Below, piece after piece: positions 5,583 through 27,321 of a stretch of DNA of 32,000 nt (its first letter is position 1; each line of letters starts with the position of its first letter). Source of the DNA: Methanopyrus kandleri AV19 (GTDB lineage: Archaea; JAADCQ01; Methanopyri; Methanopyrales; Methanopyraceae); NCBI RefSeq assembly GCF_000007185.1, contig NC_003551.1, forward strand, positions 120,001 through 152,000, in the 5' to 3' direction. The notes beneath the pieces are model-generated. The model was not told the DNA's origin and ran no database searches. It saw only the letters and a program-made list of their open reading frames with translations. The translations under genes and the position numbers were made by a program.

Positions 5583-6139
5583 GCCAGTGGATAGTGATCG
5601 TCGACCGTGAGGAGCTCGAGTACGACGGCTCGCAGCTCCGCAGGGCGTTCGCTCACGAGCGGTACGGAATTAAAGGGCGGGCCGTAGTGGTGTTTCGAGG
5701 CCCGATGGACGTGAGGACGGAATACACCGCTGATGCTGAGGACGTCGGCTCGCCTATCCGGGGCAACGACGTGCTGCATTTGCTCGTGGACGACCCTACC
5801 CGGGCCGATCCGCTGGTAGCAGGACTGCTTCAAAGGTTGCTGGTAGTCGTAACGAAGGAAGTCATCGAGAAGGAACTATCGACGGATCTGGACCGCGACG
5901 GTGACGATCTCCTACACGACGGTAGAAAGCTCACCGTGTCGGTTTTCAAGCCGGCGGGCCCCGGTTCGCTCGCGCACCTCGGGATCAACGTGACGACCGA
6001 AGGTGTTCCCGTCCCCGCCTCCTCCCTACGCGACCTCGGTTACCGTGGAGATCCACTCGACCTGGGTCGACGCGTTGCCGTCGAATTCGTCCGCGAGATC
6101 ACGGATGTGGAGTTGGACCTCACCAAGATCAGGTGGTGA
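5531..6139 (+). CDS. Conserved archaeal hypothetical protein (possibly DUF366/COG2029-like)
   Basis: Long ORF with neighbour-like composition. Motifs LEYDGSQLRRAF and VLHLLVDD recall DUF366, from memory only. It overlaps the ogt 3' end and the tfrB GTG start (6133) by 7 nt. An alternative GTG start is at 5594. Confidence 0.5.
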   Translation: MEEEAVRAGGSVTIEEVGQWIVIVDREELEYDGSQLRRAFAHERYGIKGRAVVVFRGPMDVRTEYTADAEDVGSPIRGNDVLHLLVDDPTRADPLVAGLLQRLLVVVTKEVIEKELSTDLDRDGDDLLHDGRKLTVSVFKPAGPGSLAHLGINVTTEGVPVPASSLRDLGYRGDPLDLGRRVAVEFVREITDVELDLTKIRW

Positions 6140-7611
6140 GGGACTTGAACGAAGCCGTCGTGATTCGCATCGAGACCCCCGAGCGATCGGAGCGCGTGAA
6201 AGTACCGTATCGTGAGGGGATGACGCTACTCGACGCGCTACGATGGATCAAGGAGCACGAGATACCGGACCTCGAGTTCGAGTTCTCGTGCCGGAACGCT
6301 CAATGTGGCACCTGCGCCGTGCTAGTGAACGGGAAAGCTCGACTCGCCTGCGAGTACCGGTTGGAACCCGGCCAGGAAGTGACCGTGGGGCCGTTGAGAC
6401 ACCTGCCCGTGGTTAAGGACCTGGCGGTCGATTGGTCGGCGGTCACGTCGAGGCTCCGGCCTCTTTCCCCTAAATCCCACCGAGAGTGGTTCCGTCGGAT
6501 GGAACCCGAGAAGCAGCGGAAATTGTACGAGCTCAGATCTTGCATCGAGTGCCTCTGCTGTGTCGCCGAGTGCCCCGTGATCAAGGCGGGATCGGCGCGG
6601 AACCCGGGTCCGATCGTGCTACGGAAGGTAGCGGAGGAGGCCGAAAAATGGGACGAGTCCCCCGAAATAGACGACTCCGTGTACGCCTGCACCACGTGCC
6701 ATACCTGCGCCGAGGTGTGTCCTAAGGACATAGAGATCCCGGCGAAGGCCGTCGAGACGGTACGGGCGAGACTCTACGAGGAAGGTAAAGGCCCACTACC
6801 CGAGCACAAAGAGCTAGGAGAGAGGGCCGTACGCACGGGCAGGTCCGTCGAGAAGAGGGACAGGTCGTTCTTAGAGGAGTACTCCGGCGAGTACGGGGAA
6901 GGAGACGTCAAGGCCATGTTTTTCACGGGATGTCTCGTGGACTACCGACTACCCGATACCGGGAAGGCCCTAGTCAGGCTGGCCGAGGAGTTAGGGATCA
7001 GACTGATCGTCCCTCGGGAGCAGGTCTGCTGCGGCTCACCGCTCCTGAGGACCGGGCAGCACGACCGCGCCGAGCGTCTAGCTTTCGAGAACCTGGAGAC
7101 GTTCCGACGGGTCGACCCCGACGTTATCGTCACCGTCTGCGCCGGTTGTGGGGCCACGCTGAAGAACAATTACCCTGAGCTCCTCGGTGATAGGTTCGAG
7201 TGGGATGTACTCGACGTCACGGAGTTACTCGTAGAGATAAGGGCACACGAGCGGGGGTTCCGGCTCCCGGAGCGTACAACGGTTACGTACCACGACCCGT
7301 GTCACCTGAAGCGGGGGCAAGGCGTCGAGGACGAGCCCAGGAAGCTCATCCGGTCGATCGAGAACGTCGAGTTCGTCGAGATGGAGGAACCGGACCGGTG
7401 TTGCGGGGCCGGTGGGGGCGTTCGATCCGGTCTACCGGAGCTCGCGGAGCTGATGTCCGACGTGAAGGCTCACATGGTACGCGAGACCGGAGCCGAAGTG
7501 CTGACCACGGTCTGCCCGTTCTGCGAATACAACCTCAGGGAAGGACTGGAGCGCAACGACGTCGAGGCACGAGTGGAGAACTTAACGGTGCTACTCTCCA
7601 GGGGTCTTTAA
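6133..7611 (+). CDS. tfrB: Thiol:fumarate reductase subunit B-type protein (SdhB/FrdB Fe-S domain fused to HdrB-like CCG domains)
   Basis: 2Fe-2S pattern CRNAQCGTCAVLVNGKARLAC (C-x4-C-x2-C-x11-C). Two ferredoxin motifs, CIECLCCVAECP and CTTCHTCAEVCP. Two CCG-domain signatures, VCCGSP and RCCGAGGG. Confidence 0.75.
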   Translation: MVRDLNEAVVIRIETPERSERVKVPYREGMTLLDALRWIKEHEIPDLEFEFSCRNAQCGTCAVLVNGKARLACEYRLEPGQEVTVGPLRHLPVVKDLAVDWSAVTSRLRPLSPKSHREWFRRMEPEKQRKLYELRSCIECLCCVAECPVIKAGSARNPGPIVLRKVAEEAEKWDESPEIDDSVYACTTCHTCAEVCPKDIEIPAKAVETVRARLYEEGKGPLPEHKELGERAVRTGRSVEKRDRSFLEEYSGEYGEGDVKAMFFTGCLVDYRLPDTGKALVRLAEELGIRLIVPREQVCCGSPLLRTGQHDRAERLAFENLETFRRVDPDVIVTVCAGCGATLKNNYPELLGDRFEWDVLDVTELLVEIRAHERGFRLPERTTVTYHDPCHLKRGQGVEDEPRKLIRSIENVEFVEMEEPDRCCGAGGGVRSGLPELAELMSDVKAHMVRETGAEVLTTVCPFCEYNLREGLERNDVEARVENLTVLLSRGL

Positions 7612-8664: not shown

Positions 8665-11600
8665 TCACCAGCCCCGTGAAGTTCCGATCCTCGGTCTCCA
8701 CAGCGTGCCGACTAGGATGACCGCCGCCAGCAGCGCGACGATGAGGGCTACGAGTATCCAGCGAGGGACCGAGGTGGTGACGGGGGACTGCGCCGAGGTC
8801 CGACGAAGTATCGAGGCCCTCGCCGATCTCTCCTGCGAAGGCTTACCCTTACCCGCCGAGCTTCCGACACTCACTTCGACGGTAGCGGCCGACTTCGCGC
8901 CGACAGTTCCCCGGAGCAGGACGCCCGTAACCGATACCGGGACGGCACCCCGACCGGGACCGCTGAGCGCAGCCTGACTGGCCAGAATCGCCGCGATCGT
9001 GGCCGAAATCGCGACCGCTTGACTCGCGGTAGCTCGCACCGCCAAAGTTCTGACAGTCCTGGCGGCCATCGGGGCGGTTTCTCTCGTGAACGCGGGAGAC
9101 GTGAGCTGCCGGAGGATCCGGGCGACGAGCTCCGGATTGTTCATGTAGTTGGCGGCGAAGACCGCCATGGCCTCGCGGAGGTTGGGAACCAGTCCCTCGT
9201 ACTGGGAGAGCGCCTCCAAGAGGCGCTGCTGCACTACCGGATTCCCGCAGACTCCCGGACAGCAGCATAGGACGCCCCGGAGGAGCTCGGGCACGATCAC
9301 GTCCCGGACGAGGGCTACGAACTCCCGGCTCTTGAGGACTTCCTCGCTGATCAGCTTGTGCTGCGCCCGGTCGTACGCGATCACGAGCAGAGACACCGCC
9401 AGCGAGAACAGACCCTCCGGGGAGTATCGCGCCAGCCACTCCCGGTTCTCCACGAGCGTACTCGCCGTCCGACGGAAAATCCCCTCCCAGCCGAGGAGTC
9501 CCAATGCGAGCGTGGACCAGCCGCGGATGAGGTAACCAAGGCGTTTCAGGAGTTCCACAGCACCCGAGTACCCGTGGAACCGGAGCCCGCGGACGTAAAC
9601 CGGGTTGAAGACCGTACGCATCAGATCGTACCATGCGTAGGTGTCGAAGGGCATGAGTAGGGAGTACCGGAAGGCGGCCGTCTCATTCCCGGTGAGTGCG
9701 GCGAGCGTACGGGTGGTCACGGTGGAGAACAGCGAGGTCATGTTCGAAGCCAGGAGCGCCGCCAGGTAGCTGCCCGCACTGAGCTGAGAGGCGAGATCAC
9801 GCAACCAGGGGGCTAGGTTCGGGTTCGCCGCGGCCATCAGTTGGATCTCCTCCGCGAGCCTGCGCGCCATCTGCGAGTAATCACCGCCTACGTAAGAGCC
9901 GAGGGCCGCGTTCCTGAGGTTCAGGACCAACGCGTCGATCATCGTCTCCTGCTCGGGTAGCAGCCCGTTGACCGCGCTCACGGCCAGCCTCAGACCACCC
10001 TCGAACGCGTAGATACAGTCGTCATAGAAGAACGTGGCCTTCTCGTCGGACGAAACCATCGTGTGAAGCGTGCGGTCGGGCGCCGCGAGGTTCAGTGCGA
10101 GGAGGAGCGGGAAGCTGGCTCCCCAGTGCTTCGGCCCGTAGACGTAGCTGAGACCGGATATCCAGCTCAGCGCCAGGTTCAACCGATCCTCCAGCAGGAA
10201 CTCTCCGGACTCGATCGTCTTGCCGATCACGTTCGTGTAGTCACCGGGCGCCTGACAGAACACGTTGAGGGCAGCCAGTAACGGGAGATCCTCGTCCGGA
10301 ACCTCCCGGACCTGCTCGATCCAGCCCGTAATGATCCCACCGTTCGGAGAACCTCCAGAACCGGCATCCGGCGCGGAGGTTATGTTCGACTCCCGACAGG
10401 TCAACAGCGCCAGGTAGACGGCGGCCCAGTCCAGGAACGGATAGTTCTCAGCCGGTGGCACGAGAACGGCGAGGGAGGCCGCGGTGTTGACGACGGATTC
10501 GAAGTCGTATCCGTGTTCTGCGCAGAACTCCCCCACCAGGTCGTAGAGCCGCCTCAGCCCCTCCTCGAGCTCGCGAGCCAGCTCCTCGTCCGGGGTCGTG
10601 AGCGCCCGCCACAGCGCCGCCCGGTACACGTGCAGCACGGTCTCGTGGATCGGATTCTTCCACTCACCCTGGGATAGCCGCTCCACGGTCTCGCGCAGCC
10701 ACCGGCGAACCCAGTACACCGGGTATTCATCGATCCCGCGGATCTCTAGGACTTTGTCCACGTCGCTGACGATCAGGGAGCTGTGACTCAATAGTCGGGC
10801 CAGGTAGGGTTCGGCGGCCAGAATCGCCGCCACTCGGCCCAAGAACAGTTCCGTCAGGATGTTGTGCGCGAACACGTCTCGGAAGCACGAGGTACCTGTG
10901 ACGATCACGTCGGTGAGTCGACGTGGGACCTCCCGAAGCACCAGGCTGGCCGAGATCACCGGCTCGTCTCCCACGAGCGTTACCGTGCCGATCACGGTGA
11001 CTGTCTCTCCCTCCTCCGGCACGCGTCCCTCGTCTATCCGCACCCGGACTTCCGTACACCCGTCCGTTAGGACGATGTACCGCCCTTCCACACGTTCGAC
11101 TCTACCGCGGATCGGAAGCCTGCCGAACGCCCGTCCGACGGCCGAGAGTTGCGTGGGCGTGAGTACTTCGTCCTCGATCCTCTTCGCCTCTTCCTCAGAG
11201 AGGACCCTGGCATTAACGACCTCCACGCGACCGCCCGTGGACACCAGCGTGCCCAGTACCATGACTTCATCGTCCAAGTGGAGCGGTATCGGCAGCACGT
11301 TGACCGGACACCGCACCTCGATGCGTTGACCGCCCATCGGAGGCTCGAGCACCAGGCGAACGGCACCCGATCCGAGCGACTCCATCCGGACGATGCGGCC
11401 CACGACTAGAATCTGGCCGAGGCGTCGGGTGTAGGATACGCCGCTGGGGTTCATACAGAGGGATGGATCGACGCCCGTCACGACCCAGTCCGCGTTACGG
11501 TGCGGGAGCACACCCAACAGGAGCATCTGGACCGCGATCGGTAGCCCCCTGGTGTTGATGTTGTCCGTCGCCCAGTCGAAGGCCACCACCTTCCTAGTGA

Positions 11601-14600
11601 CCGTACGTAGCGGGATCGCGACCGTGTAGGCCACGTTGATCGAGATCCAGTCCGGCCACTTCCGGGGATCGAACATGCACGCGTTCCGGCCCGTGGGTAA
11701 TGCGTCGATCTGTTTGAAGGGGCTCGAGTTGAAACCCGGCGGCACGTAGCCACCGCTCAGCGCGTTGAGGAAGTTCGTACGTTCGAGCCGCGCGCTCTCG
11801 AAGAGCAGTTCAACGATCCGGGCCGCCTCGCGGTGTAGGTCATCGGCGTCCCGCGTCTCGGGTCGCTCGATCACTTCACGACACACGTCCAGGGCCCTGG
11901 AGTAGTCCAGTGCCCCCATCACCTCGTTCAGGAGTACCTTCGCCGCGAAGCTAGCCACGGTGCCGACGGGATCCTCTCCGATCGGCGGCATCCCGAACAC
12001 GTGGAGGCCGATCGGGACCACCTCATGCTCCTCCAGGTCGTGCAGCAGGAAGTACAGCTTGGCGCAGTTCTCGTCGAATTTCCGCTCGAACGCCTCCAGC
12101 GAGCTCAGGTTCAGCAGCTCGTACGCTCGCGTCTTCTTTACCAGATCCAGAATCGCCGGTTTCAGGGAGCTCAGGTGGGAGGACTGGTACCTCTCCAGCA
12201 GCTCTAGGAGTTGACCCATGTCGCCGGTGAGCTCCTCCTTGACCAGGGACTGAGGTAGGTAGTTCACTATCACCGCCCAGCCGCGGCGCTTCGCCACCAG
12301 CGCCTCCGACGGGTCCGCGACGTAGTACGGGTAGACCTGGGGCACGTTTTGGATACATATCTGTGGGAAGTCCCACCAGGACATGAACAGAGGCTTGTAC
12401 GGCAGCCACTCGTACGTCCCGTGTTTACCCGTGTTCACAATCACGTGCGCCCGGAACACCCGAGTGAAGTAGTAGTAACAGGCCAGATAGTAGTGACAGG
12501 GTGGCAGCACGGTGGAGTGGTACGCGACGCTGATCCCGACGTAGTAGCCTCGGGCGGGCTGGGGCGCGACGATGACGTTTCCGAAGTCGATCCCCCGTAT
12601 CACGAAGTACTTCTTTCCGTCGATCTCGACGAGATACCGCGAGCGCTCGGGCGGGCCCCAACCCGTGAACCAGCCGTAGAAGGCCTCAACTCGGCCCCAC
12701 TTGGCGTGGAGGGACCGACACAGCTCGAGAGCCTGATTCACCTCCTTCGGATCCGTCAGGGCACCGATGACAGCGTCCACCAGTGACTCCACGTCACGTT
12801 GGAACTGCTCCTTCGTCTCCTCGGGAACGTCCAGGTATTGCAGATGACCCGCCACGTAGGATACGAGTGACTTCAGTCCGTTGACGATGGCCTGCAACTT
12901 CAGCGGGTCGGTGATCGGACCGTGCTTTTGGATCTGAAGCAACACCGCCTCCAGGTACCCGAAGATGCCTTTCTCCATGCACAACCGAGCCTCCTCGGGC
13001 AGCGACCGGTACCATTTCAGGTACTCGTCGAGCGGCAACAGGTGCAGGTACCGGATCTCCTGCTCCCGCTCCACGAACCGACCGTGCTCATAGGCCAGCA
13101 GCCGGAGAACGAGCCTGTGACCTTCCACGTTAACGCGCCTCAGGATGTACGCACCGACGTTGGAACCCTCCTCCACCATGAGTCGTCCGAGGGCGTCGGC
13201 GAGGGGCCTGATGAGCCGATAGGCCTTGTAGTAGAGGTCGAGGGCCTCCTTCCACCTGCCCTCCTGGGCGAGCTCTTCCGCCCGTTCTTCCAGCTCCGCG
13301 ATCCGCAGCAGCATCTCCTCGATCGATAACCCGCGTGCCTCGGCCGGGATCTCGTCCGCGAACTCCAGCAGCTTTTCCTTCAGTTCCTCGGGAATTTCGA
13401 CGCGGTAGCTCGCCTTCATCAGCCATGCGAGAAAGTTCACGATCGACGCGGGTACGTCCAACGATGAGGCCGTACCGACGCCCTCCTTACCCGGCTCCGC
13501 CGCCCAGTACAGGATTACGACACGCTTCTCCCGGTTCGGGGTATTGCGTAGCTCGATCCAGGCCAGGATCCTGTCGGCGGCTATGCGGATCATCTCGGGG
13601 ACGGGTGTATCCGAGCACCACACGCGGTCCAGTAGCGCCTCGGGACCGTCCTTACGCCACTCACGGACCGAGATCGGGATCCCCTCGATGGCACCCAAGT
13701 TCTCCGGGATCACGATATGGTAAAGGGCGAACCAGTCCAGACCGCTCGGAGTACGCCAGCACGTCTGCCACTCGCTCATCGTCCAGGGCAGACTCACGAG
13801 CTTGATCACGGGTAGGTTCAGCTCCTTCAGCAGCTCGACTTCCGGCGAGTCGGGGGAACGCATCTTGAAGAACCCCGGGAGAAGCGCGATCGTCTGCACG
13901 TTGTACTCGGATACGATCCGCTTCAGAGCCAGTAGTACGTCCTCAAGGCATCCGTCGAGGATGTCGTAGTGAAGGCCCAAGACCATCGGGTTCAGACCGC
14001 GCTCCCTCAGCGCCTTACACAGCTCGCGGATGGGGGCCGTCCAACCGCTCTCCATCCTCGTAGTGTCAACGATTACAAGTACCGTCGGTCCCTCCCGGCG
14101 GGGTTCCTTACTCAGAACCTCCTCGATGATATCAGGGAGGTGTTTCCGGAGGAGCTCTACGAACCAGGCGGGGTAACGGGTGTTACCGAGGATGACGCCT
14201 CCATCGCCGTACCGCTCGATCAGAGTCATGACTTCTCCCGGATTGGGGTCGGACGGGCGGATTACCTCGTCGCGCTCGAAGTCGTAGCCTTCGACCCATC
14301 CGTCGAAGGGATGGTAGGGACCGGGGTGCCTCTCGAGGAAATAGGAGAACAGCGAGCGGAAGTTCCGAACGGAACGCGACTGTACGTACAGGGAGAGTGG
14401 AATCTCCAGCCCGTACCAATTGACCTTCACGGAGTCCAAACTCTTCACTTCGGACGGTCCCGGGAGCACGTTGTCGAACTCGAACACGCGTTTCTCGGAG
14501 GACGATTCCGAGAACAACTCGTTGAGGACGTTCCCGAACACCGTGTTGCTCGTCGTGTGGATCAACAGCAGGGTGTCGGCGGACTCGACCGCCTCCCTCA

Positions 14601-14793
14601 CGTGTTCCTCGGGCACGAACCCTTTGGAAACCGTGTCCTCTACGATGACAGTTACGGGCAGCCCGGAAGCGGCCTTCGCGGCGGGCATACCCGTGGACCA
14701 GTACCCCGTGATGATGACCAACTTACCGGCGTGAACGGGTGACACGGCGATCAAGAGCACGAACGCGATGACAAGTGTCAGCCTGGAACTCAT
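8665..14793 (-). CDS. Giant (2042 aa) secreted, C-terminally membrane-anchored CobN/ChlH-like chelatase homologue
   Basis: Signal peptide MSSRLTLVIAFVLLIAVSPVHA|GK. CobN motifs NTGKHGTYEWLPYK, YPYYVADPSEALVAKRRGWAVIVNYL, ALPTGRNACMFDP, FDWATDNINTRG, DVIVTGTSCFRDVF. Ala/Ser/Thr/Gly-rich linker, then TM helix WILVALIVALLAAVILVGTLW and a basic tail. GGGGGGTGG SD-like sequence precedes the ATG. Confidence 0.85.
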   Translation of the reverse strand: MSSRLTLVIAFVLLIAVSPVHAGKLVIITGYWSTGMPAAKAASGLPVTVIVEDTVSKGFVPEEHVREAVESADTLLLIHTTSNTVFGNVLNELFSESSSEKRVFEFDNVLPGPSEVKSLDSVKVNWYGLEIPLSLYVQSRSVRNFRSLFSYFLERHPGPYHPFDGWVEGYDFERDEVIRPSDPNPGEVMTLIERYGDGGVILGNTRYPAWFVELLRKHLPDIIEEVLSKEPRREGPTVLVIVDTTRMESGWTAPIRELCKALRERGLNPMVLGLHYDILDGCLEDVLLALKRIVSEYNVQTIALLPGFFKMRSPDSPEVELLKELNLPVIKLVSLPWTMSEWQTCWRTPSGLDWFALYHIVIPENLGAIEGIPISVREWRKDGPEALLDRVWCSDTPVPEMIRIAADRILAWIELRNTPNREKRVVILYWAAEPGKEGVGTASSLDVPASIVNFLAWLMKASYRVEIPEELKEKLLEFADEIPAEARGLSIEEMLLRIAELEERAEELAQEGRWKEALDLYYKAYRLIRPLADALGRLMVEEGSNVGAYILRRVNVEGHRLVLRLLAYEHGRFVEREQEIRYLHLLPLDEYLKWYRSLPEEARLCMEKGIFGYLEAVLLQIQKHGPITDPLKLQAIVNGLKSLVSYVAGHLQYLDVPEETKEQFQRDVESLVDAVIGALTDPKEVNQALELCRSLHAKWGRVEAFYGWFTGWGPPERSRYLVEIDGKKYFVIRGIDFGNVIVAPQPARGYYVGISVAYHSTVLPPCHYYLACYYYFTRVFRAHVIVNTGKHGTYEWLPYKPLFMSWWDFPQICIQNVPQVYPYYVADPSEALVAKRRGWAVIVNYLPQSLVKEELTGDMGQLLELLERYQSSHLSSLKPAILDLVKKTRAYELLNLSSLEAFERKFDENCAKLYFLLHDLEEHEVVPIGLHVFGMPPIGEDPVGTVASFAAKVLLNEVMGALDYSRALDVCREVIERPETRDADDLHREAARIVELLFESARLERTNFLNALSGGYVPPGFNSSPFKQIDALPTGRNACMFDPRKWPDWISINVAYTVAIPLRTVTRKVVAFDWATDNINTRGLPIAVQMLLLGVLPHRNADWVVTGVDPSLCMNPSGVSYTRRLGQILVVGRIVRMESLGSGAVRLVLEPPMGGQRIEVRCPVNVLPIPLHLDDEVMVLGTLVSTGGRVEVVNARVLSEEEAKRIEDEVLTPTQLSAVGRAFGRLPIRGRVERVEGRYIVLTDGCTEVRVRIDEGRVPEEGETVTVIGTVTLVGDEPVISASLVLREVPRRLTDVIVTGTSCFRDVFAHNILTELFLGRVAAILAAEPYLARLLSHSSLIVSDVDKVLEIRGIDEYPVYWVRRWLRETVERLSQGEWKNPIHETVLHVYRAALWRALTTPDEELARELEEGLRRLYDLVGEFCAEHGYDFESVVNTAASLAVLVPPAENYPFLDWAAVYLALLTCRESNITSAPDAGSGGSPNGGIITGWIEQVREVPDEDLPLLAALNVFCQAPGDYTNVIGKTIESGEFLLEDRLNLALSWISGLSYVYGPKHWGASFPLLLALNLAAPDRTLHTMVSSDEKATFFYDDCIYAFEGGLRLAVSAVNGLLPEQETMIDALVLNLRNAALGSYVGGDYSQMARRLAEEIQLMAAANPNLAPWLRDLASQLSAGSYLAALLASNMTSLFSTVTTRTLAALTGNETAAFRYSLLMPFDTYAWYDLMRTVFNPVYVRGLRFHGYSGAVELLKRLGYLIRGWSTLALGLLGWEGIFRRTASTLVENREWLARYSPEGLFSLAVSLLVIAYDRAQHKLISEEVLKSREFVALVRDVIVPELLRGVLCCCPGVCGNPVVQQRLLEALSQYEGLVPNLREAMAVFAANYMNNPELVARILRQLTSPAFTRETAPMAARTVRTLAVRATASQAVAISATIAAILASQAALSGPGRGAVPVSVTGVLLRGTVGAKSAATVEVSVGSSAGKGKPSQERSARASILRRTSAQSPVTTSVPRWILVALIVALLAAVILVGTLWRPRIGTSRGW

Positions 14794-14853
14794 CAGCCAC
14801 CCCCCTCGGGAAGATACCGGACGGACTTCTTTAGGGGGAATTAAGATGGATGA

Positions 14854-14858
14854 AAAAG
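14854..14858 (-). terminator. Oligo-T (T5) tract just after the stop of the 667-aa gene; possible partial archaeal terminator
   Basis: The minus strand reads TAA-tcccgcttcc-TTTTT-catcc. An AT-rich CTTAATT box follows, about 50 nt upstream of the next ATG. Confidence 0.25.
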
Positions 14859-14867
14859 GAAGCGGGA

Positions 14868-16871
14868 TTACGGGCGTCGCCGCAGCGCCAGCGCCAGCAC
14901 GCTCAGTGCCGCCACCGCCGGCGACACTGCAGGCGCCTTCTTCTTGGCCTTTATCACGATCGTCGTGGACTTAACGCCATACTTGGGATCTCTGTACTCG
15001 ATCTTGAGCCGATGCTCTCCTCGCTTCTCGGGCGTGTAGGTGATGGTCGCCTTGCCGTCGGAAACGTCGGCTACGCCGATGATCCTGTCACCTTCGTACA
15101 CCCGCACTTCGCCCGATGAAGCCGGCTGACCGTCGATTGTCACCTCGATCTGGATCGTTACCGGAGTACCAACCCGCGTCTCCCGTGGAACTTCGACTTT
15201 TAGCTCGACAGTGTGTCCGAATATCTCAGACCTCACACTCTCGGGTAGCCCCTCCACGGCCGCCAGTGCCGCCACTACGTGAGCCGTGGCGAAGGCGCAC
15301 TGGTTGGCCTCACGGCCCTCGAAGAACCGGCTCATGTAGAGGTAGTAGTAGCTCTGTGGCGTCGGCACGTAGAAGTAGTACTTGAGTCCTTTCTCCTTGG
15401 CTTCCTTGTACTGGCTGACCAGCGCATTAACAACGTTCTTCATCAACTGAATCGCCATGTCGTCCTCGTAGCCGAGCTCGACCGCCGTACACAATCCGAG
15501 CAAAGCCGCACACGTGCTCGCGAAGTCAGGTGATCCCTTGATGTACTCGTTGTACGGGAAGTACCCCGGCTTGTCCTCGAGCTGCATTCCGTACAGCCAG
15601 CACACGTACCGCCTCAGTGCATCGTGGAGCAAGTCCTTCGCCTTGTCGCTCAGGTACCCAGCCTTCTCGGCCTCGCGGATCGCCCATAGCGCGTAGAAGG
15701 CGTACTTGACTGGATAGTAGTAAGACTTCCAGTACAGACCCTGCTCCACCGCCTGCTTCTCCAGGAAACACGGGTTACCGTTGCCCTCGTAGAACCGCTC
15801 CACCAAGAAGTTGACAGCGTACTTGATGATGTCAGCCACCTTGTACGTCGATCCTCCGACGTCCACATCGTCGTCTCCACTTATGAGCCCCGTTTTGACG
15901 GCGTATATCAGCGTCAACACGGCACCAGCGGTATCGTAGACGGCGCTGTAGTCGACCCAAGTGTCGTCCTTCAGCCTCTGTCGGACCCAGTAAGCTATCT
16001 CGTTCTTCGAGTCAACTATCAGCACATCCTTTTTGTCCTGCTTCGAGCTGCAGTATACTTCTGGAACCAGGATTCCATTCTTGATCACGTACACAGCGTC
16101 ATCCTTGACCGAGTTCCATAGATCGTCGTCGACGAGTCCTAGCTCACGACCGACTAACAGTGGGATCAGCTGGTACAGGCAGACACCACCAATCGATCCT
16201 GTACGTATGTACCCACTTTCTTCGAGCGTTGTCCGGATGTCCTTGAGCGAATACTGGTAATAATACCCACGTGGACTACTGACCGTTAGTACCCACTTAA
16301 TAGCTCGCTTCACGGCATTTTTGAACTGTTCATCTGTCACTCCTTCCTCCACAGCTAACACTAGCATAGGGACAGTGAACTTAGTATCTGAGTACCCCGG
16401 TTCGCCTCCGAACCCAACGTATCCGTACTTGTCGTTCTTCTTAACGTAAATTACGCACTTACTGTTGTCAATAAGAGCCACTATCTTATCTCCTAGTTTG
16501 ACCGTCTCCAGCCCGTAGTCTGAGGGGAAGTAGTTGTACTTTTTGACGTAAATTACCCGGCAGTCTCCCTTGTACGTGGTCGGCCATGTGCCGACGTCGA
16601 CATCCTCTACCGTGAAGTCCCTGGACGCCACGCCCTCGTCTTGCAGTTGGCCGTCCTGTTCGGTCGCGAAGTGGACCTCGTACTGCTTACCGTTGTAGGT
16701 GCCACCCGGGTCTCGCAGGGTGTAGGTCTTGCCGACGTCCTGCTCGGTGAACTGATTCTCCACCAGCCACACTACGCTGTCCTTCAAGCACTGGTCGGCG
16801 TCTTCGAGCGTGGCCGCGCTGACGGGTCCTATCGCCGTTACGCAGCATAGGATCACGAGCAACTGTCTCAC
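14868..16871 (-). CDS. Secreted, C-terminally anchored protein: alpha/alpha-toroid (prenyltransferase/terpene-cyclase-like repeats) plus Ig-like domain
   Basis: Signal peptide MRQLLVILCCVTAIGPVSA|AT. Repeated helical-hairpin motifs: SVVWLVENQ, AIKWVLTVSSPRGYY, AVNFLVERFYEGNGNP, YVCWLYGMQLEDKPGYFPY. All-beta Ig-like segment HTVELKVEV...TTIVIKAKKK. C-terminus APAVSPAVAALSVLALALRRRP. Confidence 0.8.
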   Translation of the reverse strand: MRQLLVILCCVTAIGPVSAATLEDADQCLKDSVVWLVENQFTEQDVGKTYTLRDPGGTYNGKQYEVHFATEQDGQLQDEGVASRDFTVEDVDVGTWPTTYKGDCRVIYVKKYNYFPSDYGLETVKLGDKIVALIDNSKCVIYVKKNDKYGYVGFGGEPGYSDTKFTVPMLVLAVEEGVTDEQFKNAVKRAIKWVLTVSSPRGYYYQYSLKDIRTTLEESGYIRTGSIGGVCLYQLIPLLVGRELGLVDDDLWNSVKDDAVYVIKNGILVPEVYCSSKQDKKDVLIVDSKNEIAYWVRQRLKDDTWVDYSAVYDTAGAVLTLIYAVKTGLISGDDDVDVGGSTYKVADIIKYAVNFLVERFYEGNGNPCFLEKQAVEQGLYWKSYYYPVKYAFYALWAIREAEKAGYLSDKAKDLLHDALRRYVCWLYGMQLEDKPGYFPYNEYIKGSPDFASTCAALLGLCTAVELGYEDDMAIQLMKNVVNALVSQYKEAKEKGLKYYFYVPTPQSYYYLYMSRFFEGREANQCAFATAHVVAALAAVEGLPESVRSEIFGHTVELKVEVPRETRVGTPVTIQIEVTIDGQPASSGEVRVYEGDRIIGVADVSDGKATITYTPEKRGEHRLKIEYRDPKYGVKSTTIVIKAKKKAPAVSPAVAALSVLALALRRRP

Positions 16872-16903
16872 TTAAGTCATCCCCAACACGCCGGCTTCGG
16901 GAC

Positions 16904-16916
16904 GTAATTAATACTT
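16904..16916 (-). promoter_or_regulatory. TATA-like box for the 667-aa gene
   Basis: AAGTATTAATTAC on the minus strand, about 35-45 nt upstream of the GTG start at 16871. A GGGGATGA SD-like element lies in between. Confidence 0.35.
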
Positions 16917-17010
16917 CTTTCGGTCACGATGTTACCAAGAGGCTGCGGGTTCCGCCCGAACACTAAACGTTCTATAATCCGTAACGATTCTAGGAGGGGC
17001 GGAGGGAGGT

Positions 17011-17391
17011 TCAGTCCCCGTGGATCTCCTCGAGTAGTTCCTCTACTATCTTCTCCCTGACCTCCTCACCGGTGACGCGTCGGAGGATAGCTCCTAGCGT
17101 CTCGTCATCGTCCACCGGGATGAAGTACGCCGTCTTACGGCCGAGACGCTTCGACTTCAACAGTCCCTCCTGCCTAACCTTATAGAGTGCGCTCCTGATG
17201 CTGTTGGCTTTAACGTTGTATCCTAGCTCTTTGAGCACCCTAACGATCTCATCGACGTTAATCCATTGACCCTTAAGGCTTGCCAGTAGCACCACTGCCA
17301 AGGCCGCTCCTAGGTTCGTTAGCTCGCCTTCACGAAGCCTTCTCTTAATCTCTTCGACATCCTTTTGGAACTCTTCCGGGACCTCGGACAA
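17011..17391 (-). CDS. Small winged-helix DNA-binding protein (MarR/ArsR-like fold)
   Basis: 126 aa. INVDEIVRVLKELGYNVKANSIRSALYKVRQEGLLKSKRLGRKTAYFIP fits helix-turn-helix plus wing. Both termini are acidic. It lies directly upstream of the surface-protein module on the same strand. Confidence 0.6.
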   Translation of the reverse strand: MSEVPEEFQKDVEEIKRRLREGELTNLGAALAVVLLASLKGQWINVDEIVRVLKELGYNVKANSIRSALYKVRQEGLLKSKRLGRKTAYFIPVDDDETLGAILRRVTGEEVREKIVEELLEEIHGD

Positions 17392-17442
17392 CTCCGATCA
17401 CCCCTCTACGTCTAATTTCCTGCACTGGCGGGATTCGGGCGG

Positions 17443-17455
17443 TTAATAAATAAAT
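17443..17455. promoter_or_regulatory. AT-rich TATA-like box in the longest intergenic spacer
   Basis: TTAATAAATAAAT on plus / ATTTATTTATTAA on minus. It could serve the minus-strand wHTH gene (start 17391) and/or a plus-strand small RNA beginning about 25-40 nt downstream. Confidence 0.3.
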
Positions 17456-17486
17456 CGCCGTGCGGTTACCGGACTGACTTACATGT

Positions 17487-17550
17487 GGACCGATGACGAG
17501 GTAATCCCCGGCCGACGGCCGGTGTGATGACGGAGAGCCGGCGGAGGTCT
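17487..17550 (+). ncRNA. Candidate box C/D sRNA (moderate)
   Basis: Terminal stem GGACC 17487-17491 / GGTCT 17546-17550. C-like ATGACGA 17493-17499. 12-nt spacer GGTAATCCCCGG. D' CCGA 17512-17515. 8-nt loop. C' GTGATGA 17524-17530. 11-nt spacer CGGAGAGCCGG. D-like CGGA 17542-17545. Confidence 0.45.
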
Positions 17551-18318
17551 TTATATTAATCCCAAGTAGTTAAGTACGGCAAGGGTGGTGTGAACGGCCT
17601 CCTCAGTTCTCACTACCTGCACCCCTTGATTTGGCACGAAGTTAATCACCGGATACTCGTCTCGAACCCCCGGATCTACGTCCAGGACACTCACCTCGCT
17701 AGACCCGAATACCAGGCACTTCACCGGACTCTTAAACTCGACTTCTCGAACGTCTTCACCGTATCTTGAAGTCACAATGATACCCTCCTTAAACTCCCTT
17801 AACACCTCATTAAGCTCATTTACAATCCTCACTCGATACCCCCAGTACTCCTCGGGCTCGGCCGGTTCCACCTCCAGCGGGTCCTCGGAGACGATCCGCA
17901 CAGTCACCCGTTCGTGTGGTTTAAAGCGCCATCTGGTGCGCGCGAGGCGGTCGGCACCTACGTCTACGAGCGCTCCGTTCCGACTTCTCCTAACGACGTA
18001 ACCCTCCCGTACCTCACCTTCCTTCGGCGAGTGGACCTTATGGTGGGGAGCCCTCAACGGCGGCATGACTCCGGCGTACCTGAGGTCACGGTCCAGTCTG
18101 AACACCCTCTTCCTAAGGTACTGGGGACACTCCTGATACTCTAAGAGCTTCCGTAGCCGTTCCGCGTTCCTACGGGTTCCGACGCCGTCACCGTATAGGT
18201 AAACCTCCTCCACTCGGTATATGGCCAGGGCGCGCGCCAGGGTCCCCACCCGATAAGCGTAGATCTTGGGGTCGGTCTCCTCAGAGAAGAGACTCCACGG
18301 GAACGCGACCGCCACCAC
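17551..18318 (-). CDS. SPOUT-superfamily RNA methyltransferase-like protein (DUF171/COG2106 type with inserted OB-like domain)
   Basis: 255 aa. N-terminus AFPWSLFSEE...VGTLARALAIYRVEEVYLY and C-terminus LVFGSSEV...NQGVQVVRTEEAVHTTLAVLN are typical of the trefoil-knot family. GTG start. Confidence 0.6.
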   Translation of the reverse strand: MVAVAFPWSLFSEETDPKIYAYRVGTLARALAIYRVEEVYLYGDGVGTRRNAERLRKLLEYQECPQYLRKRVFRLDRDLRYAGVMPPLRAPHHKVHSPKEGEVREGYVVRRSRNGALVDVGADRLARTRWRFKPHERVTVRIVSEDPLEVEPAEPEEYWGYRVRIVNELNEVLREFKEGIIVTSRYGEDVREVEFKSPVKCLVFGSSEVSVLDVDPGVRDEYPVINFVPNQGVQVVRTEEAVHTTLAVLNYLGLI

Positions 18319-20547: not shown

Positions 20548-21369
20548 TTAGAGAAGCTTGATGCCCAACCCCTGTAGGATGAACTTCAACGATATGTACA
20601 GGAACACCACTCCGAATATACCCTTGATCGTCCACGGCTTGATCTTCTGAGTAGTTTTCGCGCCTAGCTTCACCCCGGCGATGGTGCCTAGACCCAGCAG
20701 CGTACCTCCTACCAAGTCCGTGAGGCCCTGGGCCATCTTGTACGCCGCTGAGACCGTCGCCATGGGAATCATGCTGATCATGGACGTTCCCACAGCGAGG
20801 TGGACCGGTGCGTCCAGTAGGTAGATGAACGACGGCACCAGGGCGTAGCCTCCACCCAGTCCCAGGATCCCCGTGAGGATCCCGATGCCGAACCCTATGG
20901 CGGCCTTGCTGGACGGCTTACCTGGAATCTCGTCGGCTTCGGACCCCGGGATCTTTTTGATCCACTCGTAAATCATCCGAACCGCGGCGTACAGGAAAGC
21001 CGCCCCGAGGATCACCTGCAGTGCTCCGGTATGCTTCATTATGAGGGCGAAGATCACGGAGCCCAGCAGTGCACCGATTGCGCCGGCGGCCAGCACGATA
21101 GCCGACGTTTCGTAGTCGATGTTTCCGAGTTTCGCGTGAGACATCGTACCGAACGTCGCCGTCCACACCACCGCGAAGACCGTCGTAGCGATGGCTTCCG
21201 GAATAGGGTACTTCAGCAAGAACACGAGCATGGGTAGCATCAGCACACATCCGCCGGTGCCTATGATACCGCCCAGGTAACCCGCTATGAATCCCGTTCC
21301 CAGCAACTCGAGTACCGCGAGTGCCGTCAGCCCGGGCAAACGCGTTGCCCTGCTCTCCTCTAATTTCAA
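20548..21369 (-). CDS. TauE/SafE-family (DUF81) anion/sulfite-sulfonate transporter-like membrane protein
   Basis: 273 aa, multi-pass hydrophobic. Gly-rich motifs GYLGGIIGTGGCVLMLP and GILGLGGGYALVP. TTG start. Confidence 0.7.
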   Translation of the reverse strand: MKLEESRATRLPGLTALAVLELLGTGFIAGYLGGIIGTGGCVLMLPMLVFLLKYPIPEAIATTVFAVVWTATFGTMSHAKLGNIDYETSAIVLAAGAIGALLGSVIFALIMKHTGALQVILGAAFLYAAVRMIYEWIKKIPGSEADEIPGKPSSKAAIGFGIGILTGILGLGGGYALVPSFIYLLDAPVHLAVGTSMISMIPMATVSAAYKMAQGLTDLVGGTLLGLGTIAGVKLGAKTTQKIKPWTIKGIFGVVFLYISLKFILQGLGIKLL

Positions 21370-21414
21370 AAGTTTTTTAATGTTTCGAGATTAGTTGAAT
21401 AAAGGGATGCCATC
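21370..21414. promoter_or_regulatory. 45-bp AT-rich divergent promoter region (TauE-family gene / usp)
   Basis: AAAGTTTTTTAATGTTTCGAGATTAGTTGAATAAAGG. This is the only AT-rich stretch between the two divergent start codons. Confidence 0.3.
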
Positions 21415-21891
21415 GTGCCTCGGAAGATCTTGGTGCCGTTCGACGGGTCCGAACCCGCCGAGCTGGCCTTGAAGTGGGCGCTTCTGGACGCGCACGACCA
21501 CGGATTTCCGATCAAAGTGATGTACGTGGTCGACCGCTCCTTGGACCTGCTCACGGGCTTCGCCCCCAGGGAGACCGTGCTGAAGGAGCTGAAGGAGAGA
21601 GGGGAGAAGATTCTGGAGGAAGCTGAGCAAATAGCCGGTGAACTAGGTGTCGACGTGAAGATTGAGAAGAAGGTCTGTGTAGGCATCCCGTGGCGTGAAA
21701 TCGTGAGGGAAGCGGAAGATGACGAGGAGATCAACCTAATCGTGATGGGGTCTCACGGACGAACCGGTCCAGAACACGCGATCCTCGGAAGCGTCGCGGA
21801 GAACGTGATCAGACACAGTCCCGTCAACGTCTTAGTGGTGAAGCGTGAGAAGAGGGTCGAGGATAGCGTTGAGGAGTCTTCCCGCCGCTAG
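21415..21891 (+). CDS. Universal stress protein (UspA family)
   Basis: KILVPFDGSEPAELALKWAL and GSHGRTGPEHAILGSVAENVIRHSPVNVLVV (G-x2-G-x9-G-S/T ATP-binding type). GTG start. Confidence 0.8.
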   Translation: MPRKILVPFDGSEPAELALKWALLDAHDHGFPIKVMYVVDRSLDLLTGFAPRETVLKELKERGEKILEEAEQIAGELGVDVKIEKKVCVGIPWREIVREAEDDEEINLIVMGSHGRTGPEHAILGSVAENVIRHSPVNVLVVKREKRVEDSVEESSRR

Positions 21892-22646
21892 ACCAAGCGC
21901 AGGCCGCTGAGCACCATCTTAGCCCCTACGAGGGCTAATACCACTGAAAACGCCCGCTTGACTCTCTCACCGCCGATCTTGTTGGAGAGCTCCGCCCCCA
22001 CGTATGACGATATTAACATGCCGGTAACTACTGCCAGGGCAGCCCAGAAGTTCACGTACCCTTCCATCCAGTACTGAGCGGCCCCCGCCAGCGCGCTGAC
22101 GGGGACGATCACGGAGGACGTGCCTATGGCGAGCATGGTCGGGAAGTTCAGGACTGATGCCATCACCGGGACGAAAAGCACGCCGCCCCCTGAGCCGGTG
22201 AAACCACTGAAGGCCCCTACGCCGAAACCCGTGAGCGATGCTACCGCGATGTTATCGCGGATCTCGTTCCCCTCCTCGGTTTCCCCGTCGAACGCCATCC
22301 TGAGGGCCATCGCGGAGCATGCAACTCCCAGCGCGACTTTGAGCACGTGCTCGGGAGTTAGGCATGCTAAATAGCTCCCCACCTGTGCTCCCACGATCGC
22401 ACTTAATCCGAAGATCGGTGCCGCGTCGACGTGTACGTTGCCCTCTTGAAGGTGCCTGTAGGCGCCGGTAAACCCGCCGAGACTTATGGCCAATAGCGTC
22501 GTGCCCAGGGCCAGGTGCATGGGCATTCCGGTGGAGTTCAGGAGTGGTACTAGTAGGAAGCCTCCCCCGACACCGAACATTCCGGAAACTAATCCTACGA
22601 GACCACCTATCCCCAAGTACAGCATCATTGACGGGTCGGGTATCAT
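21888..22646 (-). CDS. Second TauE/SafE-family (DUF81) membrane transporter-like protein
   Basis: 252 aa. GMFGVGGGFLLVPLL and GFTGSGGGVLFVPVM. It is a paralogue of 20548-21369. The 3' end overlaps usp by 4 nt. Confidence 0.7.
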   Translation of the reverse strand: MIPDPSMMLYLGIGGLVGLVSGMFGVGGGFLLVPLLNSTGMPMHLALGTTLLAISLGGFTGAYRHLQEGNVHVDAAPIFGLSAIVGAQVGSYLACLTPEHVLKVALGVACSAMALRMAFDGETEEGNEIRDNIAVASLTGFGVGAFSGFTGSGGGVLFVPVMASVLNFPTMLAIGTSSVIVPVSALAGAAQYWMEGYVNFWAALAVVTGMLISSYVGAELSNKIGGERVKRAFSVVLALVGAKMVLSGLRLV

Positions 22647-23436: not shown

Positions 23437-23949
23437 GTGTACGTGGTGGGCGTGGACCTGGCGGCAAAGCCCGGAAACCCCGCCGGCTTCGCAGTTTGGA
23501 GAGAAGGGGAGATCGTGTGTTGGTCCGAGTCCTCCGATGATGAGCGCGTGCTGGAGGTATGTCGGAAGGCTGAACTGGTGGTCTTCGACGCACCGCTCAC
23601 CGAGTCCGATAGACCCTTTCGGCGGCGGGATGAGATCTTCCGCCGGTACGCTCCGGTCCTCCCCCTCACTTTCCCGGGCATGCGGGAGTTATCCAGAAGG
23701 GCGCGGTCTCTGGTGCGAAGGCTGGAGTTAGAGGTTTACGAGACGTATCCGCGAGCCGCGGAACGCTTCATCAGGCTACATGGGAACCCGGTGGACGAGC
23801 ACTCCAGGGACGCCGCGATATGCTGCGCGGTGGGACTGGCGGTGCTCGAGGGCGAAGCCCACGTCTTCGGTGAGCCGCCGAAGGCCGCGTTGCCGAAGCG
23901 GGAGCTGTCGGTCTCCGTCAGAGCTCTAACCGCTCCTCCCGACGTATGA
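23437..23949 (+). CDS. Predicted RNase H-fold nuclease-like protein (DUF429/COG2410-like)
   Basis: 170 aa. N-terminal VVGVDLAAKPGNPAGFAVW followed by FDAPL is typical of RNase-H-like DUF429 proteins. GTG start. The 3' end overlaps tmcA by 32 nt. Confidence 0.45.
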   Translation: MYVVGVDLAAKPGNPAGFAVWREGEIVCWSESSDDERVLEVCRKAELVVFDAPLTESDRPFRRRDEIFRRYAPVLPLTFPGMRELSRRARSLVRRLELEVYETYPRAAERFIRLHGNPVDEHSRDAAICCAVGLAVLEGEAHVFGEPPKAALPKRELSVSVRALTAPPDV

Positions 23950-26637: not shown

Positions 26638-27321
26638 TTGACCCCCAGGATCATGGTGGGGACCTCCCCGTTCCTAGGAGCCGGCCAGTTCGGGCATCGG
26701 GCCCTTCTATACCGGCGCACCTTCTACCACCGTCCTGAAAACATCGTTGCGCTGCTAGAGTACTGCGCCGAAGAGCTCGGCGTTACGGGCGTTCAAGCCC
26801 TGGCGGATCCGGTCATTATCGGGGCGCTGAGGGACGCGGATCCCGATCTGGACGTCGTGGCGGTAGTGGGACTGAGGAACTTGGAGGAGGAGCTCGAAAT
26901 GCTGGAAAACCTGAACCTGCGTGCGGTGCTTCTCCACGCCAGCTGTGTCGATGGTGAGGACGTCGGAGAAGTGTCGGCCAAGCTGGACGAAATCAGAAGC
27001 CGATTAGATGTTCCGGTCGGGATCGCCACGCACCGACCGGACGAGACGCTCCCTAGGTGGGAAGATAAAAAGACGGCGGACGTGTACATGGTCCCCCTGA
27101 ACCCAGTTGGGGCGTTCATGGGAGACCAGAAAGCCGTTGAGGAGCTCTTGGCCGAAACGGATCGAACTGTGATAGCGAAGAAAGTATTGGCGGCCGGATC
27201 CTTACCACCGGAGGAAGGACTACCGTACGCAGCGCGTTACGCGGACGCCGTGGCTGTAGGAATCACCGGAAAGAAGGAGGCGGAAGAGACCCTGAGGATC
27301 GCCAAGAGGTACTTCGGGTGA
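26638..27321 (+). CDS. Conserved hypothetical protein (alternating beta/alpha pattern, possibly TIM-barrel-like)
   Basis: 227-aa ORF with neighbour-like composition and no motif I can name. TTG 26638 or ATG 26653 could be the start. Confidence 0.55.
   Translation: MTPRIMVGTSPFLGAGQFGHRALLYRRTFYHRPENIVALLEYCAEELGVTGVQALADPVIIGALRDADPDLDVVAVVGLRNLEEELEMLENLNLRAVLLHASCVDGEDVGEVSAKLDEIRSRLDVPVGIATHRPDETLPRWEDKKTADVYMVPLNPVGAFMGDQKAVEELLAETDRTVIAKKVLAAGSLPPEEGLPYAARYADAVAVGITGKKEAEETLRIAKRYFG

Follow-up and report, generated by a model that had tools for sequence, protein, structure and literature searches.

The stretch of Methanopyrus kandleri AV19 DNA analysed here (the window: 32,000 nucleotides (nt), positions 120,001 to 152,000 of contig NC_003551.1) carries on its minus strand two adjacent genes, B and A in their order of reading, whose products are predicted to lie outside the cytoplasm: B has the fold of an (alpha/alpha)6 toroid, and A is a homologue of the class-I chelatase large subunits CobN, ChlH and HmuS. 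The positions of the two open reading frames (ORFs) and of the spacer between them are exactly those given by a first-pass annotation made from the letters of the DNA, and the small winged helix-turn-helix (wHTH) gene that it had placed upstream was recovered as well (Table 1). A database protein of M. kandleri matches B at 100% identity. A putative strong Shine-Dalgarno sequence, GAGGGGGGTGG (14797-14807), lies 3 nt ahead of the ATG of A, and another, GGGGATGA, appears to precede B; a T5 run (14853-14857) is found past the B stop codon, inside the spacer. The CGAAAGAAG-TATTAATTA element upstream of the GTG of B is a candidate archaeal promoter of the B-A unit. In relatives the spacer shrinks to 23 nt (locus L001), 4 nt (L003) and a 4-nt overlap (L004), which is consistent with co-transcription.

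The gene pairing, on whose presence in related genomes the first-pass annotation had staked its proposal of a surface system, recurs. Four divergent lineages of the Methanopyraceae, each with unrelated genes on either side, keep B and A adjacent in this order, with B/A identities across the paired lineages of 62/66%, 54/56% and 52/53%; the genes are paired in L009 and L010 too. A paralogous pair is encoded in a Methanopyraceae metagenome-assembled genome (L011). There, a distant cousin of B (P0092, 28% identity, without the beta inserts of B) is encoded 16 nt upstream of A', a second, predicted exported CobN-like protein of about 2000 residues that keeps the PTGRN motif, the CCCP cysteine cluster, the OB-like inserts, the stalk and the PRW-transmembrane-W ending of A. 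The catalytic His (to Arg), the catalytic Glu (to Gly) and the FEGG motif are lost in A', and an apparent frameshift at around 13.6-13.7 kb of L011 breaks its reading frame. As both the B-A order and this paralogous pair have been maintained, the pairing of a toroid with a CobN-like protein is old and robust. A FeoB gene is located about 3 kb upstream of the paralogous pair (L011 5184-7157).

No ATPase partner had been seen near the pair, and this observation holds: no AAA+/vWA partner is encoded across the 32-kb window or in L001-L004. Similarly, no MotA/ExbB-DUF2149 gene is present in the window or in the Methanopyraceae loci. In the two deep Methanopyraceae lineages of L003 (4542-6600) and L004 (3759-5752), the genes directly upstream of the pair encode an ABC-2-type transporter (an ATPase and an ABC2_membrane protein) in divergent orientation, which is not found in M. 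kandleri or L001.

Table 1. Positions of the B-A pair, its sequence features and related elements (window coordinates unless a locus is named).
Feature	Position	Strand	Description
Gene B	14868-16871	-	667 residues; predicted exported (alpha/alpha)6 toroid with beta inserts, Ig-like domain and Pro-rich tail ending RRR
Gene A	8665-14793	-	2042 residues; predicted exported, C-terminally anchored class-I chelatase large-subunit homologue (CobN/ChlH/HmuS superfamily)
B-A spacer	14794-14867	-	74 nt; read from sequence
BRE/TATA-like element	16905-16922	-	CGAAAGAAG-TATTAATTA; about 38 nt upstream of the GTG of B; read from sequence
B signal peptide (predicted)	16815-16871	-	residues 1-19, MRQLLVILCCVTAIGPVSA followed by AT; hydropathy 2.26
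B Ig-like domain	14964-15188	-	residues 562-636; Big_3_5/Filamin-type, Pfam E=8.3e-9
B C-terminal tail	14871-14939	-	KAPAVSPAVAALSVLALALRRRP; anchor or candidate lineage-specific sorting signal
A signal peptide (predicted)	14728-14793	-	residues 1-22, MSSRLTLVIAFVLLIAVSPVHA followed by GK; hydropathy 2.24; kept in 9/9 orthologues
A domain-III catalytic segment	12304-12423	-	H791 (=ChlH H621/HmuS H538), E795 (=E625), E830 (=E660/E577)
A domain-V insertion	10909-11481	-	residues 1105-1295; two tandem beta-rich repeats, putative OB-like barrels
A C1593	10015-10017	-	in FFYDDCIYAFEGG; column of ChlH H1174, HmuS H1209 and CobN Asp
A cysteine cluster CCCPGVC(GNP)	9247-9267	-	residues 1843-1849; end of CobN body; invariant in 9/9 orthologues
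A Ala/Ser/Thr/Gly-rich stalk	8764-9111	-	residues 1895-2010; Ala/Ser/Thr/Gly fraction 0.53 versus 0.26 overall
A C-terminal transmembrane helix (predicted)	8698-8760	-	PRW-ILVALIVALLAAVILVGTL-W, then basic tail RPRIGTSRGW; hydropathy 3.12
wHTH gene	17011-17391	-	126 residues; 139 nt upstream of B; PaaX/Penicillinase_R-like, E=3.7e-6
Paralogous toroid gene	L011:9914-11290		Methanopyraceae metagenome-assembled genome
Paralogous CobN-like gene (A')	L011:11307-17388		Methanopyraceae metagenome-assembled genome
Pro-rich...RRR(R) tail	14871-14939	-	C-terminus of B
Pro-rich...RRR(R) tail	L001:7014-9899
Pro-rich...RRR(R) tail	L004:5758-6744	-
Pro-rich...RRR(R) tail	L003:15760-16851	-
Pro-rich...RRR(R) tail	L011:9914-11290

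Superfamily, active site and predicted topology of protein A

Protein A matched the Pfam family CobN-Mg_chel (PF02514) with 453.9 bits (cut-off 24.5; E=1.6e-135) and all five CobN/ChlH motifs quoted in the first-pass annotation were found in its translation, bearing out the proposed membership of the CobN/ChlH superfamily. The phmmer alignments to reference CobN proteins cover residues 229-500, 586-940, 995-1109, 1500-1616 and 1727-1862; the extra length of A comes from insertions at about 500-700, 1105-1295, 1300-1500 and 1614-1727. Sequence matches in the Protein Data Bank (PDB) were to CobN (9uk9, 7c6o), ChlH (4zhj) and HmuS (9d26). As judged from these alignments, A is a complete six-domain large subunit of the CobN/ChlH/HmuS superfamily, lengthened by insertions. 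The domain-V insertion, which is common to A and A', adds about 180 residues compared to CobN, including the archaeal protein P0018, and sits between the GV.P and R..DV..(T/S)G.FRD motifs; its Pfam matches to Ten1_2 and tRNA_anti-codon (OB) are weak and sub-threshold (E=0.04-0.09), and Pfam scans of the insertions of A gave sub-threshold TPR and OB hints only.

H621, E660 and H1174 have been named essential in ChlH (PMC13297055), and the cavity of HmuS holds the dyads His-538/Glu-577 and His-1209/Asp-1208 (PMC12583661). The corresponding columns were assigned by motif spacing and a family alignment of 81 sequences. Two of the three catalytic positions are retained in A: H791 and E830 are each invariant across the family (81/81), and E795 is present in 80/81 sequences. 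E830 is located at +39 from the catalytic His, whose motif reads NTGKHG, with Asn in place of the first His of the superfamily HFG(T/A)HG. The third position, placed by in-register alignment to the solved CobN 9uk9, is neither the His nor the Asp looked for as domain-V ligand: it is Cys1593. This column is Cys in 9/9 Methanopyraceae sequences and in 0/72 others (Asp 45, Thr 9, His 7, other 11). Among orthologues, conservation of A peaks in the segments that form the cavity (0.90-0.96 identity versus 0.51 in the stalk), and it is also strong at the PTGRN and KRR motifs. A further cysteine site closes the CobN body. Motifs related to this cluster are present in A' and in exported homologues (CCCINCCGNP in P0026, CCHHTC in P0025 and CTEFVCGNP in the HmuS-like P0089), and no such motif was found in the cytoplasmic CobN/BchH matches examined; the cluster may bind a metal or an Fe-S centre or form a disulfide.

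These cysteines bear on one alternative, in which A (with B) binds free Ni2+, Co2+ or another soft metal on the cell surface at His791, Cys1593 and/or the CCCPxxC cluster and passes it to an uptake system, with no turnover of a tetrapyrrole. A clade-specific Cys replacing Asp or His at the metal-proximal position and an invariant cysteine cluster both fit this role, and so does the fact that no tetrapyrrole-related gene is linked to the pair. The 'CobN1' of the methanogen Methanothermobacter marburgensis, made only under Ni limitation, has been termed a possible metal-chelating protein (PMC12350162); as an analogy this may serve as no more than a lead. However, genes for Ni/Co transport are likewise missing beside the pair, and the strong conservation of the whole tetrapyrrole cavity, PTGRN and KRR extends beyond the needs of a metal site. 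We consider metal-ion capture unlikely.

The N-terminus of each protein combines a short basic n-region with a hydrophobic core, after which small residues occupy -3/-1 (VHA before GK in A, VSA before AT in B), and hydrophobic segments are present at the C-termini of all A and B orthologues. The N-terminal signal and the C-terminal transmembrane helix occur together in 9/9 orthologues of A, and the N-terminus of B is hydrophobic in all full-length orthologues. Hydropathy, this conservation and the positive-inside basic tails support, as a prediction, the earlier view that both proteins are exported and anchored; cleavage of the B signal peptide is suggested by the -3/-1 rule. The predicted transmembrane span of A comprises 19-21 residues, and the PRW...transmembrane...terminal W pattern is kept in its orthologues and in A'. 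Ahead of it lies the Ala/Ser/Thr/Gly-rich stalk, which the first-pass annotation had recognised correctly and which is the least conserved part of A (0.51-0.65 identity among orthologues). By contrast, the N-x-S/T sequons from which a surface glycoprotein had been deduced are not enriched: A has 5 versus 6.3 expected by composition, and B has 0 versus 1.6. With sequons at or below chance, the glycoprotein argument is unsupported.

NCBI labels the orthologues of A 'cobaltochelatase subunit CobN', which would make A a cytoplasmic subunit of cobalamin biosynthesis, and the Pfam CobN-Mg_chel match agrees with this label. However, A scores far below the cut-offs of all nine NCBIfam CobN/BchH equivalogs (TIGR02257, PRK; for example 282.5 versus 822 bits), has a predicted signal peptide and C-terminal transmembrane helix, and carries Cys where CobN has Asp. 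No CobS/T or ChlI/D gene is located nearby, unlike in the case of the cytoplasmic archaeal CobN taken as a control (P0018, L015), which adjoins an AAA+/vWA gene as well as BtuFCD and CbiZ. In addition, methanogen genomes encode CbiX, the early-insertion chelatase of the anaerobic route (PMC3087415). The database name is therefore very likely wrong for these proteins, and it is barely credible that A is a cytoplasmic CobN.

Fold, family and C-terminal tail of protein B

The AlphaFold2 (AF2) model of full-length B (pLDDT 83.8, pTM 0.78) contains about 13 helices, broken by a beta-sandwich (residues 49-144) and hairpin inserts. The immunoglobulin (Ig) domain noticed in the first pass was recovered with Pfam; its Foldseek matches are CARDB/PKD/SoxY-type Ig folds, and it is limited to an M. 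kandleri-type subgroup, being absent from P0004-P0009. As the Foldseek search with full-length B was dominated by Ig-domain matches, an Ig-less construct was re-modelled (pLDDT 85.0, pTM 0.88); the remaining full-length matches were spurious helical ones (TM-score ~0.14). The Ig-less construct matched solely (alpha/alpha)6 barrels, with probability near 1.0 and TMt up to 0.58: GH88/GH105/GH76 hydrolases, cellobiose 2-epimerase, class II terpene cyclases, A2M/complement TED domains, transcobalamin and GGTase-beta. The E-values were 3e-3 or worse and the identities 8-14%. The alpha/alpha-toroid fold first proposed for B is thus confirmed as a fold class, and with such E-values and identities no family or function can be assigned.

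The likeness of B to terpene cyclases and prenyltransferases, as originally drawn, stands at the fold level and goes no further, as glycoside hydrolases, epimerases, TED domains and transcobalamin score equally. The match to SQHop_cyclase_C reached 13.5 bits versus a cut-off of 26.1 (E=0.037) and concerned 2/7 members only; the signal of the cousin P0092 was E=3.9e-5. The DxDD motif, which defines class II terpene cyclases, is not conserved: it reads VDDD in M. kandleri and VDDT or VSDS in orthologues, D249 alone being invariant. A B-family profile had no match among PDB sequences even at E<=10. The toroid partner is restricted to Methanopyraceae. Its family is tiny: a search of 5.8 billion sequences gave 9 clusters, one of 1.84 billion representatives gave 8 hits, and the members with a traceable source are Methanopyraceae. 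A second, word-indexed search with the B profile returned no further members, and an exhaustive HMMER search added only fragments, P0092 and the repetitive vWA protein P0094, the last judged to be a spurious match.

Transcobalamin and intrinsic-factor carriers consist of an alpha6/alpha6 barrel and a C-terminal beta domain that sandwich the corrinoid. In the corrinoid or F430 salvage envisaged in the first-pass annotation, B would act as a transcobalamin-like carrier. Exported and cytoplasmic relatives of A often lie in corrinoid uptake or salvage loci, corrinoid contexts being dominant among the relatives' loci (L006, L008, L014, L015), and transcobalamin (8ixu) is among the fold matches of B (rank 14, prob 0.97). 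This match is nevertheless weak (TMt 0.34, root-mean-square deviation 10.4 Å), concerns the barrel level only and is no better than those to about 12 unrelated (alpha/alpha)6 families; no transcobalamin-type beta domain is apparent in B, its C-terminal domain being the Ig-like Big_3_5 domain that is missing from most orthologues; and no BtuFCD, CbiZ or cobamide gene is found beside the pair in any Methanopyraceae locus. Nothing in this analysis points to corrinoids or F430 as the substrate, and we hold this version of salvage to be decidedly improbable.

Ranked by TM-score, the structures closest to B belong to glycoside hydrolases, polysaccharide lyases and epimerases. They bring in another alternative, a non-catalytic envelope role in which the CobN scaffold and the toroid were reused as structural, adhesive or cell-wall-binding parts, B acting for example as a six-hairpin module that binds or processes glycans on pseudomurein or the S-layer. 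The Ig-like domain of B and the stalk-and-anchor features of both proteins, typical of envelope proteins, would fit such a role; A' has the full architecture without the catalytic His, Glu and FEGG; and the CobN homologues BtuS1/2 of Bacteroides fragilis are themselves not required for dechelation (PMC6460266). However, within the A clade, whose members are 53-100% identical, neither the catalytic His and Glu nor the motifs of the cavity vary, which suggests that the active site is under selection. The fold matches of B, moreover, have the weak E-values given above, and no glycosidase catalytic signature was identified in it. We consider a non-catalytic envelope role unlikely.

The C-terminus of each protein had been read as a single hydrophobic helix. 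This reading fits A, whose segment is a genuine transmembrane helix by prediction; the segment of B may be, instead of a plain transmembrane anchor, a sorting signal. A Pro-rich hydrophobic stretch followed by RRR(R) ends four unrelated secreted Methanopyraceae families (for example FLPLPPLVPPIRRRG, SPVILPIAPPRARRRRS and LPVLVPPLVPVRRR). Such tails were counted in 9/334 ORFs in Methanopyraceae DNA versus 0/142 in other loci, and those of deep-branching members are too short and Pro-rich to be transmembrane helices. None of the curated CTERM models matched the B tail, the two top-scoring ones, MYXO-CTERM (12.2 bits, cut-off 20) and GC_trans_RRR (11.9 bits, cut-off 15.85), staying below their cut-offs. 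The Pro-rich...RRR(R) tail is a candidate lineage-specific C-terminal sorting signal.

Proposed extracytoplasmic function and genomic surroundings

The reading that we favour, tentatively and with somewhat less than even confidence, is drawn by analogy with HmuS: A would be an extracytoplasmic, ATP-independent enzyme that handles tetrapyrroles and/or metals through a His/Glu/Cys site, with B presenting the ligand or positioning A in the envelope. The pair would constitute an extracytoplasmic two-protein unit of the Methanopyraceae. A would be exported via a Sec-type signal peptide and tethered by its flexible stalk and one transmembrane helix, which would place the catalytic body between the membrane and the cell wall; B would be an exported, C-terminally anchored (alpha/alpha)6 toroid. 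The substrate of A, whose action would require no ATP, would be a metal-tetrapyrrole or a tetrapyrrole together with a metal ion: His791/Glu830 and Cys1593 in the central cavity would ligate the metal and move protons, and would thereby take the metal out or exchange it, in the manner of HmuS with haem. B would capture or present the ligand, possibly in physical contact with A, or hold A in the envelope, and the substrate might be a corrinoid or a Ni- or Fe-tetrapyrrole. A more specific version appears unlikely as a whole: an archaeal surface (de)chelatase with a His/Glu/Cys site, fed by the toroid as carrier and operating with no ATP or proton-motive partner, would enable a hyperthermophilic methanogen to remove or exchange the Ni, Co or Fe of tetrapyrroles from its surroundings, of corrinoid, F430 or haem type. 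In line with the favoured reading, CobN homologues of methanogens respond to metal supply: CobN1 of M. marburgensis appears under Ni limitation, as noted above, and in Methanosarcina barkeri the proteins annotated as BtuS vary with the source of Fe/S (PMC10846266).

Several points weigh against an HmuS-like enzyme. (i) The third catalytic residue is changed to Cys, and the HmuS signature LSLDHxxEFMGG (His-1209, Glu-1212) is missing from A, which has FFYDDCIYAFEGG instead, while the HmuS-like P0089 carries SLDHVYEFTGG. (ii) The Met-rich insertion of HmuS is missing as well, A having <=6 Met per 120-residue window. (iii) Residues 1-330 of A did not align to the head/neck of any solved CobN, ChlH or HmuS chain, so that the head/neck heme ligands of HmuS (Met-79, His-254) have no alignable counterpart there. 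(iv) A' has the same architecture without the catalytic His and Glu, and the scaffold can thus outlast the canonical active site. (v) At none of the loci is the pair accompanied by genes for a transporter, for corrinoid or Ni/Co handling or for MotA/ExbB-DUF2149, so that the genomic context is uninformative on the substrate. (vi) The signal peptides are predictions from hydropathy and the -3/-1 rule.

The HmuS study calls it unclear how Archaea employ their many HmuS/CobN/ChlH homologues (PMC12583661). The B-A pair offers a compact test case: A is predicted to be exported, has the catalytic His/Glu intact and a unique Cys, is encoded with neither an ATPase nor MotA/ExbB at its loci, and is strictly co-inherited with a partner of another fold. 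If A is active, a class-I chelatase body could work extracellularly in archaea with a different helper and ligand set, which would bear on the acquisition of Ni, Co or Fe by methanogens or on the salvage of costly cofactors; if it is inactive, the scaffold would have been reused as an envelope component. Should the surface (de)chelatase with a toroid carrier prove correct, it would provide a first function for many orphan archaeal CobN homologues.

Upstream of B, the wHTH gene and the other neighbours are syntenic within the genus Methanopyrus only, and the wHTH gene is not beside the B-A pair in L001-L004. Because its synteny is confined to the genus, it was ruled out as a dedicated regulator of the pair, and probably represents context outside the B-A system. 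The G+C content is 0.52-0.55 at 16001-18000, over the wHTH gene and the beginning of gene B, versus about 0.60-0.65 elsewhere, gene A included; codon or amino-acid bias or a foreign origin is possible. Elsewhere in the window we found (i) a gene for an archaeal SelB-type selenocysteine elongation factor (27400-28779, minus strand), (ii) two TauE/SafE exporter paralogues on either side of a Usp gene (20548-22646), and (iii) a gene for a 2Fe-2S/4Fe-4S/CCG-domain (HdrD/TfrB-like) protein (6133-7611, plus strand), the start of which overlaps the end of a DUF366 gene. The ORFs at 23437-23949, 26638-27321 and 28789-29439 had no Pfam match, and an Rfam scan of the window returned no RNA family.

Comparison with known systems

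Known CobN/ChlH proteins had been described in the first-pass annotation as cytoplasmic, and the pair as an undescribed surface system. Neither statement can be maintained. HmuS of Bacteroides is a CobN/ChlH homologue with predicted N- and C-terminal helix anchors that is drawn on the periplasmic side (PMC12583661; structure PDB 9d26) and takes iron out of haem without ATP (PMC12583661), and for BtuS1/2 of B. fragilis a periplasmic location with a membrane anchor has been predicted (PMC6460266). This topology is shared by about 23 of the 80 best homologues of A, with a signal-like N-terminus and a C-terminal transmembrane segment; the exported homologues include a large proteobacterial clade and two fusions with Big or PQQ-propeller domains. 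Exported, anchored CobN homologues are hence known in bacteria, and have been noted, without a function, in archaea. In an approximate neighbour-joining tree of the conserved core, the Methanopyraceae clade was monophyletic with the exported classes as its sister group; tree distances were nearly uniform, so that this placement is tentative. The loci of the relatives combine a CobN-like gene with a TonB receptor and BtuFCD (L006), with BtuFCD, CobB/O/Q, MotA/ExbB and DUF2149 (L008) or, in the HmuS-like case, with CbiK, a TonB receptor, MotA/ExbB, DUF2149 and cobamide genes (L014). In such loci MotA/ExbB and DUF2149 genes often follow that of the exported bacterial CobN-like protein, which suggests a periplasmic module that is linked to the proton-motive force and differs from the AAA+/vWA system.

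HmuS and A are alike in their superfamily, their six-domain body, the terminal hydrophobic segments that would put this body outside the cytoplasm and the lack of an AAA+ partner, and the catalytic residues H538 and E577 of HmuS are matched by H791 and E830 of A; the HmuS-like P0089 and A also share a CxxxCGNP-type cysteine motif. In contrast, A is about 600 residues longer, with OB-like inserts and a stalk, and has a toroid partner, which HmuS systems lack. The hmu-type operon (TonB receptor, HmuY, HmuT, MotA/ExbB, DUF2149), seen around P0089 and P0033, is not found at the Methanopyraceae loci. P0089 is the most distant of the 80 matches (E=2e-22), and on sequence grounds A is not a member of the HmuS family.

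The proteobacterial exported clade, annotated 'CobN' and marked by a GRHSTYEFLP motif, is among the closest relatives of A outside the Methanopyraceae (E ~1e-60) and falls in the sister group of the approximate tree. Its members resemble A in having a signal peptide, often a C-terminal transmembrane helix, and no AAA+/vWA partner. They differ in their TonB-receptor/BtuFCD/cobalamin-salvage loci, sometimes followed by MotA/ExbB and DUF2149, in the Asp at the third catalytic position, in their length of about 1400-1450 residues and in having no toroid partner. Canonical CobN and ChlH (BchH) (9uk9, 7c6o, 4zhj) share with A the GxHG..E(W/F)(L/M)P, NP(S/G)E..AKRR, PTGRN and FEGG motifs; the domain-V motif of A is nearest to that of CobN, FEGG being identical. 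These proteins, by contrast, are cytoplasmic, comprise 1200-1400 residues, depend on AAA+/vWA partners and have Asp (CobN) or His (ChlH H1174) in place of the Cys. As for B, it has the same barrel as other (alpha/alpha)6 toroid proteins, to which it adds the beta-sandwich and hairpin inserts, a predicted signal peptide and the C-terminal tail. Compared to all these systems, what is new in the Methanopyraceae clade is the absence of an energising module from its loci together with the OB-like inserts, the unique Cys at the third catalytic position and the restricted toroid partner.

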